Assembly (NCBI RefSeq): GCF_013167455.1
Contig: NZ_CP038328.1
Direction: 5' to 3' (one strand)
DNA: 64,000 nucleotides
Source: Escherichia coli O157:H7
GTDB lineage: Bacteria; Pseudomonadota; Gammaproteobacteria; Enterobacterales; Enterobacteriaceae
Notes under the pieces: generated by a model
The model's database searches: none
What the model saw: only the letters and a program-made list of their open reading frames with translations
What the model was told of the DNA's origin: nothing
Program-made: the position numbers and the translations under genes
Shown: positions 9,876 to 23,828 of the stretch, piece after piece
How positions within the stretch are numbered: the stretch's first letter is position 1
How the letters are laid out: each line of letters starts with the position of its first letter

Positions 9876-10070
9876 ATGAGATATGACGATGTTAAACCAT
9901 GTCCGTTTTGTGGTTGTCCATCTGTTACGGTGAAAGCAATTTCAGGATATTACCGGGCAAAATGCAACGGATGCGAATCCCGAACTGGCTATGGTGGAAG
10001 TGAAAAAGAAGCACTCGAAAGATGGAATAAACGAACTACTGGAAATAATAATGGAGGTGTTCATGTATAA
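9876..10070 (+). CDS. ralR: RalR (restriction alleviation; type I toxin with DNase activity)
   Basis: 64 aa MRYDDVKPCPFCGCPSVTVKA...; Cys-rich. Confidence 0.75.
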   Translation: MRYDDVKPCPFCGCPSVTVKAISGYYRAKCNGCESRTGYGGSEKEALERWNKRTTGNNNGGVHV

Positions 10071-10251
10071 AATAACTGCCACTATTGAAAAAGAAGGTGG
10101 CACTCCTACTAACTGGACAAGATATTCAAAATCTAAATTAACGAAATCAGAATGCGAAAAAATGCTCTCAGGGAAAAAAGAAGCAGGCGTGTCCAGAGAG
10201 CAGAAAGTAAAGCTGATAAATTTTAATTGCGAGAAACTTCTGTCCTCGTGA
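10063..10251 (+). CDS. ydaC: YdaC-like small prophage protein
   Basis: about 62 aa MYKITATIEKEGG...; start uncertain (alternative ATG at 10051). Confidence 0.55.
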   Translation: MYKITATIEKEGGTPTNWTRYSKSKLTKSECEKMLSGKKEAGVSREQKVKLINFNCEKLLSS

Positions 10252-10350
10252 GTTGCATTATATACAAATTAAAACTTCATAGCTGATTATTAATAATCAA
10301 CATCAGGCGTCAATTTCAGTCTAACATTGGCGCCTGCCAGAGGTGATGCG

Positions 10351-10566
10351 ATGGCACAAGTAATCTTTAATGAAGAGTGGATGGTTGAATACGGCCTGAT
10401 GCTTCGCACTGGTCTGGGGGCCAGACAAATTGAAGCATACCGCCAGAACTGTTGGGTGGAGGGCTTCCACTTCAAACGAGTATCTCCTTTAGGTAAGCCA
10501 GACAGCAAACGAGGGATTATCTGGTACAACTATCCAAAGATAAATCAGTTTATCAAAGACTCATGA
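10351..10566 (+). CDS. xisR: excisionase
   Basis: 71 aa immediately upstream of the integrase gene. Confidence 0.7.
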
Positions 10567-10567
10567 T

Positions 10568-11803
10568 ATGTCTAAATTACCAACAGGTGTCGAGATTAGA
10601 GGTAGAAACATTCGCATCTGGTTCATGTTTCGAGGAAAACGATGTCGGGAAACATTAAAAGGCTGGGAGATTACAAACAGTAATATTAAAAAGGCCGGAA
10701 ATTTAAGAGCGCTGATAGTTCATGAAATAAACTCCGGTGAATTTGAGTATTTAAGACGTTTTCCCCAGTCCAGCACTGGGGCAAAAATGGTGACAACGAG
10801 AGTCATAAAAACGTTCGGGGAGCTTTGTGATATCTGGACAAAAATTAAAGAGACAGAGTTAACAACAAACACAATGAAGAAAACGAAATCACAATTAAAA
10901 ACACTCAGAATAATAATTTGTGAAAGTACCCCGATATCATATATTCGTTATAGCGATATCTTAAACTACCGGAATGAACTGCTGCATGGAGAAACGCTTT
11001 ACCTGGATAATCCAAGATCCAACAAAAAAGGAAGAACCGTGCGCACAGTTGATAACTATATCGCCCTGCTCTGTTCGCTGTTACGTTTTGCGTATCAGTC
11101 GGGATTTATATCAACCAAACCATTTGAAGGAGTAAAAAAATTACAGCGAAACAGAATAAAGCCTGACCCGTTATCTAAAACAGAATTCAATGCATTAATG
11201 GAAAGTGAAAAAGGACAGAGCCAAAACTTGTGGAAATTTGCCGTTTACTCCGGGCTTCGTCACGGGGAACTGGCAGCTCTGGCGTGGGAGGATGTGGATT
11301 TCGAGAAGGGAACTGTGAATGTCAGAAGAAACCTGACGATACTGGATATGTTCGGTCCCCCAAAAACAAATGCCGGGATCCGGACAGTAACATTACTGCA
11401 GCCTGCTCTTGAAGCACTGAAGGTGCAATACAAACTGACCGGGCATCATCGCAAAAGCGAAATCACCTTTTATCATCGGGAGTACGGCAGAACCGAAAAG
11501 CAAAAACTGCATTTTGTTTTCATGCCCAGGGTGTGTAACGGAAAACAGAAACCTTATTACTCGGTAAGCAGTTTGGGGGCAAGGTGGAATGCAGCAGTAA
11601 AACGTGCTGGTATTCGCCGCCGTAATCCGTACCATACGCGGCATACTTTTGCCTGCTGGCTGTTGACGGCAGGAGCGAACCCGGCATTTATAGCCAGCCA
11701 GATGGGGCATGAAACTGCGCAGATGGTGTATGAAATTTACGGTATGTGGATTGATGATATGAACGACGAACAGGTAGCCATGTTGAATGCGCGGCTATCG
11801 TAG
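10568..11803 (+). CDS. intR: tyrosine integrase
   Basis: 411 aa; C-terminal catalytic region with R...HxxR...Y pattern (HTRHTFA); adjacent to ttcA. Confidence 0.9.
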   Translation: MSKLPTGVEIRGRNIRIWFMFRGKRCRETLKGWEITNSNIKKAGNLRALIVHEINSGEFEYLRRFPQSSTGAKMVTTRVIKTFGELCDIWTKIKETELTTNTMKKTKSQLKTLRIIICESTPISYIRYSDILNYRNELLHGETLYLDNPRSNKKGRTVRTVDNYIALLCSLLRFAYQSGFISTKPFEGVKKLQRNRIKPDPLSKTEFNALMESEKGQSQNLWKFAVYSGLRHGELAALAWEDVDFEKGTVNVRRNLTILDMFGPPKTNAGIRTVTLLQPALEALKVQYKLTGHHRKSEITFYHREYGRTEKQKLHFVFMPRVCNGKQKPYYSVSSLGARWNAAVKRAGIRRRNPYHTRHTFACWLLTAGANPAFIASQMGHETAQMVYEIYGMWIDDMNDEQVAMLNARLS

Positions 11804-14552: not shown

Positions 14553-14674
14553 AAAAAAAAGCCGACTCATCAAAGTCGGCGTCGTACGAATCAATTGTGC
14601 TATGCAGTAATTCAAAAAAGGAAGTAAGACAATATGGAGCGCAACGCCCATCGCTTGACGTTGCATTCACCTGC
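14553..14674 (-). ncRNA. fnrS: FnrS small RNA
   Basis: minus-strand sequence GCAGGTGAATGCAACG...CGCCGACTTTGATGAGTCGGCTTTTTTTT matches my recollection of FnrS; intrinsic terminator; zntB-dbpA intergenic. Confidence 0.8.
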
Positions 14675-18051: not shown

Positions 18052-18145
18052 ACCGGCGCAGAGGAGACAATGCCGGATTTAAGACGCGGATGCACTGCTG
18101 TGTGTACTGTAGAGTCTGGCGGATGTCGACAGACTCTATTTTTTT
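18052..18145 (+). ncRNA. mcaS: McaS (IsrA) small RNA
   Basis: ACCGGCGCAGAGGAGACAAUGCCGGA...AGAGUCUG-GCGGAUGUCGA-CAGACUCU-U7 matches my recollection of McaS; candidate promoter TTGGCA-17-TTATAA upstream; abgR-smrA intergenic. Confidence 0.7.
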
Positions 18146-18153
18146 ATGCAGTT

Positions 18154-22851: not shown

Positions 22852-23178
22852 ATGACTAAAAATACTCGTTTTTCCCCCGAAGTCCGTCAGCGGGCGATTC
22901 GTATGGTTCTGGAAAGTCAGGATGAATATGACTCACAGTGGGCGGCAATTTGTTCCATTGCCCCAAAGATTGGCTGTACGCCGGAGACTCTGCGTGTCTG
23001 GGTTCGCCAGCATGAGCGGGATACCGGGGGCGGTGATGGTGGGCTCACCAGCGCTGAACGTCAGCGTCTGAAAGAGCTGGAACGTGAAAATCGTGAACTG
23101 CGCCGCAGTAACGATATCCTTCGCCAGGCTTCCGCTTATTTTGCGAAGGCGGAGTTCGACCGCCTCTGGAAAAAATGA
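22852..23178 (+). CDS. IS3-family OrfA (HTH plus leucine zipper)
   Basis: 108 aa [22 protein letters not shown]...; ends at A-AAA-AAT slippery region. Confidence 0.9.
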
Positions 23179-23828
23179 TGCCACTGCTGGATAAGCTGCG
23201 TGAGCAGTACGGGGTCGGACCGGTATGCAGCGAACTGCATATTGCCCCGTCAACGTATTACCATTGTCAGCAACAGCGACATCATCCGGATAAACGCAGT
23301 GCCCGTGCGCAGCACGACGACTGGCTGAAGAGAGAGATACAGCGCGTATACGATGAAAATCATCAGGTGTACGGTGTGCGTAAAGTCTGGCGTCAGTTGT
23401 TACGGGAAGGAATCAGGGTGGCCAGATGTACAGTGGCACGTCTCATGGCGGTTATGGGACTTGCCGGTGTTCTCCGGGGTAAATGGGCCCGTCGTCCGTC
23501 TGGCACCATCCATCACAGCGATAAAGGCTCTCAGTATGTGTCACTGGCCTATACGGAGCGACTAAAAGAAGCCGGATTACTGGCATCAACAGGGAGTACA
23601 GGCGACTCGTATGACAACGCGATGGCTGAGAGCATCAATGGTCTTTACAAAGCGGAGGTAATACACCGTAAGAGCTGGAAAAACCGTGCAGAAGTGGAAC
23701 TGGCCACACTAACGTGGGTGGACTGGTATAACAATCGACGATTGCTGGGAAGGCTGGGCCATACTCCTCCGGCAGAAGCAGAAAAAGCTTATTATGCTTC
23801 CATCGGAAACGATGATCTGGCAGCCTGA
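23175..23828 (+). CDS. IS3-family OrfB transposase, internally deleted (first DDE Asp missing)
   Basis: 217-aa ORF; retains HSDKGSQY and DNAMAES motifs but no W..D.TY motif upstream. Confidence 0.75.

Follow-up and report, generated by a model that had tools for sequence, protein, structure and literature searches.

What does the DNA between positions 9,876 and 10,251 encode, and where does the antitoxin RNA of its toxin gene lie? An earlier note on this DNA gave the whole interval to ralR, left the antisense RNA RalA without coordinates and expected it to overlap or abut ralR on the minus strand. In the window (the whole stretch of Escherichia coli O157:H7 DNA analysed, 64,000 nucleotides), the previously unplaced RalA is now located on the minus strand, opposite a second small gene that follows ralR. 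The genes and the RNA of the locus are as follows.

9010-9819, plus strand: recT, ORF upstream of ralR.
9876-10070, plus strand: ralR (lar) coding sequence, 64 aa (ORF list; Pfam PF14354; RefSeq annotation of identical DNA).
10053-10057, plus strand: GGAGG Shine-Dalgarno sequence of rcbA, within the ralR coding sequence, 5 nt before the ATG.
10063-10251, plus strand: rcbA/ydaC homologue, DUF1187 family ORF, 62 aa (Pfam PF06688; RefSeq 'DUF1187 family protein').
10069-10247, minus strand: RalA small RNA, 179 nt (Rfam RF02694, full length).
10351-10566, plus strand: excisionase gene (ORF).
10568-11803, plus strand: integrase gene (ORF).

The interval 9876-10251 (plus strand) holds two overlapping small genes rather than one, by the ORF list and Pfam. 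The start of ralR at 9876 on the plus strand agrees with the earlier note; the end does not, ralR terminating at 10070 and position 10251 being the stop of the DUF1187 ORF. A single longer ralR ORF over the interval was rejected: the 9837/9876 frame stops at 10070, and the frame from 10063 belongs to a separate family. The toxin ORF is intact (64 codons plus stop). RalR scores 53.8 bits against Pfam PF14354, Lar_restr_allev (above the cutoff of 28.6), and is identical to K-12 RalR at 63 of 64 residues (sole difference D5 versus N5). K52, needed for the DNase activity of RalR in K-12 (PMC4041452), is retained. The rcbA ORF scores 129.5 bits against Pfam PF06688, DUF1187 (cutoff 20.7). Its ATG overlaps the ralR stop codon (ATGTATAA). 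K-12 rcbA encodes 69 aa; the window ORF ends 7 codons earlier, at a TGA created by an A-to-T change.

By sequence, RalR belongs to the same family (PF14354) as the Lar and lambda Ral proteins, and its gene likewise occupies the early-left operon of a lambdoid prophage, with the recombination genes on one side and xis/int on the other. Lar and lambda Ral act in restriction alleviation; the K-12 study instead ascribes to RalR non-specific DNase activity and toxicity (PMC4041452). The sequence does not decide between the two roles.

Comparison of the whole window with Rfam returned RalA (RF02694) over model positions 1-179 of 179, with 219.2 bits against a gathering score of 170 and E 3.8e-52, a match far beyond chance. 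RF02694 is the sole Rfam family matched in 9500-10700, even at E<=1. The Rfam search proposed in the earlier note does recover the RNA, at full length and within 10000-10300, and the expected contact with ralR is there: RalA overlaps the ralR stop codon by 2 nt. It is wholly antisense to the DUF1187/rcbA ORF downstream, and not to ralR itself. The geometry is the same in K-12 MG1655, where ralA (b4714) lies inside rcbA (b1347) on the opposite strand and over the last 2 nt of ralR (b1348). RalA of the window is identical to K-12 ralA b4714 at 171 of 179 positions (96%), with eight substitutions. No ncRNA feature is entered at 10069-10247 in the RefSeq record of identical sequence, and an annotation-only pipeline would therefore miss RalA. 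RalA is reported to act on the ralR mRNA in trans, via a 16-nt complementarity inside the ralR coding region (PMC4041452).

The locus is the known RalR/RalA module, carried by a Rac-like lambdoid prophage integrated beside ttcA, and so an already known system. A segment of 521 bp round ralR and the DUF1187 ORF is 100% identical in many RefSeq E. coli chromosomes, including O157:H7 and O103 (human, cattle), where the labels read 'ralR, type I toxin-antitoxin system endodeoxyribonuclease toxin' and 'DUF1187 family protein' and the gene order is recE-recT-ralR-DUF1187-xisR-intR-ttcA-dbpA. The locus is carried by about 1,920 of 5,426 complete E. coli genomes. K-12 RalR/RalA (Rac; RF02694; Guo et al. 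2014, PMC4041452) matches it in gene content, order and orientation, next to xisR-intR-ttcA; the window copy is an allelic variant common to STEC/O157/O103-type genomes.

The prophage is of a STEC-type, Rac-like kind and less decayed than K-12 Rac. Its RecE has 889 aa, and Rfam matches to DicF, IsrK and the C4 antisense RNA lie just upstream of recE (4755-4805, 5032-5108 and 5133-5220, plus strand). K-12 Rac is without the DicF, IsrK and C4 RNAs; the window prophage is therefore taken as the less decayed of the two. Past ttcA/dbpA, Rfam matches in the host flank are FnrS at 14557-14674 (minus strand) and McaS/IsrA at 18052-18147 (plus strand), a flank that presumably corresponds to the K-12 chromosomal neighbourhood of the Rac attachment site. 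At 23133-23249 (plus strand), Rfam RF01497 marks an ALIL pseudoknot, the frameshift signal belonging to an insertion sequence of the IS3 family. Between the recT stop and ralR lies a GC-rich hairpin, GGCGGTG-TAATG-CACCGCC (9828-9846), with no T run directly after it; alleles whose recT module differs likewise have its 3' arm, CACCGCC, ahead of ralR.

Pairing of RalA with the ralR mRNA involves the following sites.

9998-10013, plus strand: 16-nt RalA target site in the ralR mRNA, AAGTGAAAAAGAAGCA, equal to the wild-type repeat implied by the mutants of PMC4041452.
10003-10013, plus strand: perfect 11-nt core of the target site, recovered independently as the longest complement.
10170-10185, minus strand: RalA nt 63-78, the published pairing site, UGCUUCUUUUUUCCCU (K-12: ...UUACCU), placed by comparison with K-12.
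10086-10096, minus strand: RalA nt 152-162, CUUCUUUUUCA, loop of the terminator hairpin and second 11-nt perfect complement.

In K-12, a repeat in RalA pairs with 16 nt of the ralR coding region, 11 of them in an unbroken perfect run (PMC4041452). The core is kept in the window: RalA nt 63-73 are perfectly complementary to nt 128-138 of the ralR coding sequence (11 nt). Counted by hand, the 16-nt site has 13 Watson-Crick pairs and one G-U pair, versus 14 and one G-U in K-12. The A-to-C change at RalA nt 75 relative to K-12 adds one mismatch outside the core and weakens the distal part of the 16-nt site. A second difference from K-12, C to U at RalA nt 156, creates another perfect complement of 11 nt, between RalA nt 152-162 and ralR coding nt 126-136 (direct repeat 10001-10011/10086-10096). 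This change is synonymous in rcbA (AAG to AAA), and the second complement is present in the window allele only among the nine E. coli variants compared. The core complement measures 11 nt in seven of the nine E. coli alleles and 10 nt in the other two, in which one end is lost with the partner unchanged.

The longest perfect complement was compared with that in dinucleotide shuffles. The fraction of shuffles at least as long was 0.013-0.043 for the 11-nt cases and 0.077-0.080 for the 10-nt cases; with 11 nt turning up in 1-4% of shuffled trials, the match exceeds chance by a modest margin only. No long complement was found in the Citrobacter-type ralR-DUF1187 loci L005, L006 and L013 (longest 7-8 nt, reached by 38-86% of shuffles), which bears on the age of the RNA function and not on the membership of the window copy. 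RNAduplex with full-length RalA and the ralR mRNA predicted hybrids over the whole length, which are unrealistic and, for the window allele, did not surpass those of shuffles.

By analogy with K-12, the window probably carries a working RalR/RalA module, in which RalA is read opposite rcbA and pairs with the ralR mRNA; a probability of about three in four is given to this reading. The gene identities (all three), the geometry, the 11-nt core and the hairpin with its U tail are present in the window; RalA transcription, Hfq binding and neutralisation of RalR in this strain we infer from the K-12 experiments. On this model, the early-left operon of the prophage would express ralR and rcbA, which overlap and are co-oriented. 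RalA would be transcribed convergently from the rcbA-xisR spacer, from 10247 down to 10069. With the help of Hfq, its nt 63-78 would base-pair to the ralR coding sequence at nt 123-138. Pairing would lower RalR synthesis and so hold the DNase/restriction-alleviation protein below toxic levels.

The K-12 evidence is that RalA rescues from toxicity in trans, that mutation of the repeat abolishes rescue, and that RalA requires Hfq, which binds it in vitro (PMC4041452). A literature search for independent detection of RalA (RIL-seq, RNase III mapping) yielded only one RNase III study with a negative outcome and RNA-seq counts of a generic kind. The transcriptome-wide RNase III study reports no cleavage at ralR/ralA (PMC6212723), a result that neither supports nor excludes short Hfq-mediated pairing. 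In K-12 RNA-seq, reads are counted over ralA in all conditions (PMC12266141), reads that may not be resolved by strand from the rcbA mRNA.

RalA could instead act mainly in cis: by forming a 179-nt duplex with the rcbA part of a bicistronic ralR-rcbA mRNA, it would govern stability or translation for both genes, and the 16-nt pairing would be secondary. RalA lies fully inside rcbA and is perfectly complementary to it over 179 nt. The overlap of the rcbA ATG with the ralR stop makes co-transcription of the two genes very likely, and a 2014 review noted a possible interaction via the overlapping ends, end mapping lacking (PMC4147584). K-12 RalA supplied from a second plasmid, however, neutralised a construct with ralR only, and mutation of the 16-nt repeat abolished the effect (PMC4041452); long perfect duplexes are typical substrates of RNase III, and yet no cleavage was detected. 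A mainly cis-acting RalA is accordingly considered improbable, and short pairing in trans is kept as the preferred reading.

Candidate signals at the two ends of RalA are listed below.

10077-10102, minus strand: terminator-like hairpin, 6-bp stem UGCCAC/GUGGCA, 14-nt loop (Rfam structure; local fold -9.8 kcal/mol).
10257-10262, minus strand: candidate -10 element, perfect TATAAT (K-12: TACAAT), 9 nt from the annotated RalA 5' end.
10286-10313, minus strand: candidate sigma-70 promoter, TTGACG-16 nt-AATAAT, the better match (sequence match).

K-12 RalA is a 179-nt RNA. Primer extension on a plasmid construct placed its 5' end 62 nt ahead of the 16-nt repeat; its 3' end is predicted only, from a hairpin with a 14-nt loop on a 5-bp stem and four U after it (PMC4041452). 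The main text of that study does not mention a northern blot, and the promoter was not mapped (PMC4041452). Of the minus-strand promoter and terminator that the earlier note had suggested looking for, candidate -10 elements and a terminator-like hairpin were found; a recognisable -35 for TATAAT at 10257-10262 and a call by the terminator scan were not. The scan of 9700-10500 for intrinsic terminators called none, the RalA hairpin being passed over because its loop exceeds 8 nt. The hairpin is weak and is followed by GUUAUUUU, down to 10069, a tail that includes UUAUUUU. The TATAAT region is a conserved block among the variants aligned. The distal candidate promoter lies 38 nt further up; from it, transcription would begin near 10279, some 32 nt ahead of the annotated RalA 5' end.

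The rcbA-xisR spacer also contains a perfect 16-bp AT-rich palindrome, TGATTATTAATAATCA (10284-10299), whose halves are -10-like hexamers: TTAAAA-17-AATAAT on the plus strand (10269-10297, towards xisR-intR) and TTGACG-16-AATAAT on the minus strand (10313-10286, towards RalA). The palindrome block is largely conserved even with a different excisionase/integrase module.

Besides the 11-nt pairing core, the window shares with K-12 the 5' stem region of RalA and the terminator hairpin with its U tail; 96% of the 48 Rfam consensus pairs form in window RalA. Its single-sequence fold has z = -1.28, not unusually stable and uninformative as a test. The differences from K-12 beyond nt 75 and nt 156 include the proximal -10 (TACAAT in K-12, TATAAT in the window) and the shorter rcbA.

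The evolution of the locus was followed in nine distinct E. coli alleles, Citrobacter braakii, an Izhakiella genome, two Buttiauxella loci, several metagenome contigs and one further locus, whose DUF1187 protein is assigned to Klebsiella oxytoca by one source. RalA appears, on these alignments, to carry no evolutionary signal of its own: no covariation, no synonymous constraint, and no structure or pairing conserved outside E. coli. Compensatory changes in the 48 Rfam consensus pairs number zero across the nine E. coli variants, which with such limited variation is absence of support, not disproof. Stem positions that vary among these variants mostly break pairs, including two positions of the 6-bp terminator stem. 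The Rfam RalA score is 35 and 29 bits in the distant, Citrobacter-type loci, and elsewhere there is no match. In distant DUF1187 loci, 46-58% of the consensus pairs can form, versus 27-52% with the partners slid by 1-2 columns, i.e. background. Synonymous divergence under RalA (pS 0.216) is not lower than in ralR (0.199); the overlapping RNA therefore imposes no detectable extra constraint.

The ORF opposite RalA gives a different picture. The DUF1187 ORF is intact in 23 of 23 loci (61-72 codons, start MYKITA) in at least five genera, and a purine-rich Shine-Dalgarno sequence stands 5-10 nt before its ATG in all 17 loci examined for it, including those with upstream genes other than ralR. In the first 58 codons of the nine E. 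coli alleles, variable sites at codon positions 1/2/3 number 4/1/20 (chi-square versus an even spread about 25, 2 df, by hand). Pooled over all pairs, pN/pS is 0.065 in rcbA versus 0.103 in ralR. DUF1187 also stands without ralR upstream, the neighbour being a Dam-like methyltransferase in locus L011 and unrelated ORFs in L007-L010 and L012; ralR directly upstream of DUF1187 is found in Citrobacter braakii and two metagenome loci as well.

To judge from these substitution patterns, rcbA under RalA evolves as a protein gene under purifying selection, which contradicts the statement of the K-12 study that ydaC is not a protein (PMC4041452). The Shine-Dalgarno sequences, the occurrence in other genera and a confident AlphaFold2 model of the product (described below) point the same way. 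That statement is based on a tagged product that was undetected and on start and stop mutants that still rescued (PMC4041452). The mutants show that the protein is dispensable for plasmid rescue; they are no evidence against its synthesis. On balance, it is somewhat more likely than not that rcbA/ydaC encodes a real small protein that is translated, and that its conservation in the prophages of several Enterobacterales genera does not depend on ralR. If so, RalA would be a young antisense RNA, specific to E. coli Rac, inside a protein gene and lacking an evolutionary footprint of its own, and the deletion phenotypes (more chromosome breaks, antitoxin loss) would need to be divided anew between the RcbA protein and RalA RNA. 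The comparison argues for a dual-use locus and for re-examination of the statement on ydaC; it does not overturn the K-12 genetics. A selected protein gene beneath a small RNA that lacks a signature of selection is of modest, specialist interest.

These data also bear on the possibility that RalA is no independently selected gene: conservation of the region would be due to RcbA coding, the minus-strand RNA would be incidental, the 11-nt match a lineage-specific accident, and the effect on RalR seen only on overexpression. The codon-position pattern, the low pN/pS and a synonymous divergence equal to that of ralR fit this account, as do stems broken by synonymous changes with zero compensatory pairs, Rfam scores that fall away outside E. 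coli, and kept pairs no different from the slid controls. So do the 11-nt complement, modestly rarer than expected by chance (about 0.02-0.04) and absent from the other ralR-DUF1187 loci, the DUF1187 genes without ralR, and an O157 copy in which ralR is truncated and DUF1187 intact. Against it stand K-12 experiments in which ydaC start-codon and early-stop mutants still rescued and repeat mutants failed, and in which RalA needed Hfq and was bound by it (PMC4041452), together with the RNA-seq reads over ralA, with the reservation on strand noted above. All comparative tests favour an incidental antisense RNA; the K-12 genetics disfavour it. An incidental RNA is rated as rather unlikely, and the K-12-like module with a functional RalA is retained.

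The O157 copy just mentioned comes from a derivative of E. coli O157:H7 86-24 (NZ_CP017249.1; locus L017, 401-550). Its ralR is truncated to 49 codons, the DUF1187 ORF and the RalA sequence are intact, and the locus has an orphan 'antitoxin'/rcbA without a full toxin.

A role of the protein itself was also weighed: RcbA, translationally coupled to RalR, might modulate RalR or DNA damage, the RNA being an additional layer. The start/stop overlap with a strong Shine-Dalgarno sequence and the adjacency of RalR and DUF1187 in Citrobacter braakii and two metagenome loci would be consistent with this, as would the gene name, given for a reduction of chromosome (double-strand) breaks (as cited in PMC4041452). 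An AlphaFold2 model of RcbA (10063-10248; 15-sequence alignment) predicts, with confidence, a small beta-beta-alpha-beta fold (mean pLDDT 81). The ydaC start-codon and stop-codon mutants, however, still protected in K-12 (PMC4041452), DUF1187 also occurs beside unrelated genes such as the Dam-like methyltransferase, and the model had no significant structural match indicating a function. Control of RalR or of DNA damage by RcbA is held to be quite improbable, and silencing of ralR by RalA remains the favoured explanation.

Among type I systems with divergently encoded antitoxins, TisB/IstR-1, ShoB/OhsC and ZorO/OrzO resemble RalR/RalA in that the antitoxin RNA is encoded on the strand opposite the adjoining toxin gene and that pairing covers a short region (16-21 nt), not a full overlap. 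In these systems pairing is in the 5' UTR; the site used by RalA falls within the coding sequence of the toxin. Their toxins are small membrane peptides; RalR is a soluble, zinc-ribbon-like Lar protein. RalR/RalA further differs from them in that Hfq is reportedly required and that the antitoxin gene lies entirely inside another protein-coding gene.

A Foldseek search of the RcbA model against the PDB gave no significant match. The closest, non-significant structural neighbours are the p56 uracil-DNA-glycosylase inhibitors of phages phi29/PZA (best E 0.4, prob 0.82). With the break-reduction phenotype, this offers a lead, not supported yet, that RcbA may be a small inhibitor of a DNA-processing enzyme. 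In some Enterobacterales prophages (loci L011, 1671-2686, and L010, 2319-2686), the partner to which DUF1187 is translationally coupled is not ralR but the Dam-like methyltransferase or an unrelated ORF of 64 aa; a conserved Cys-rich ORF of 138 aa comes next after DUF1187.
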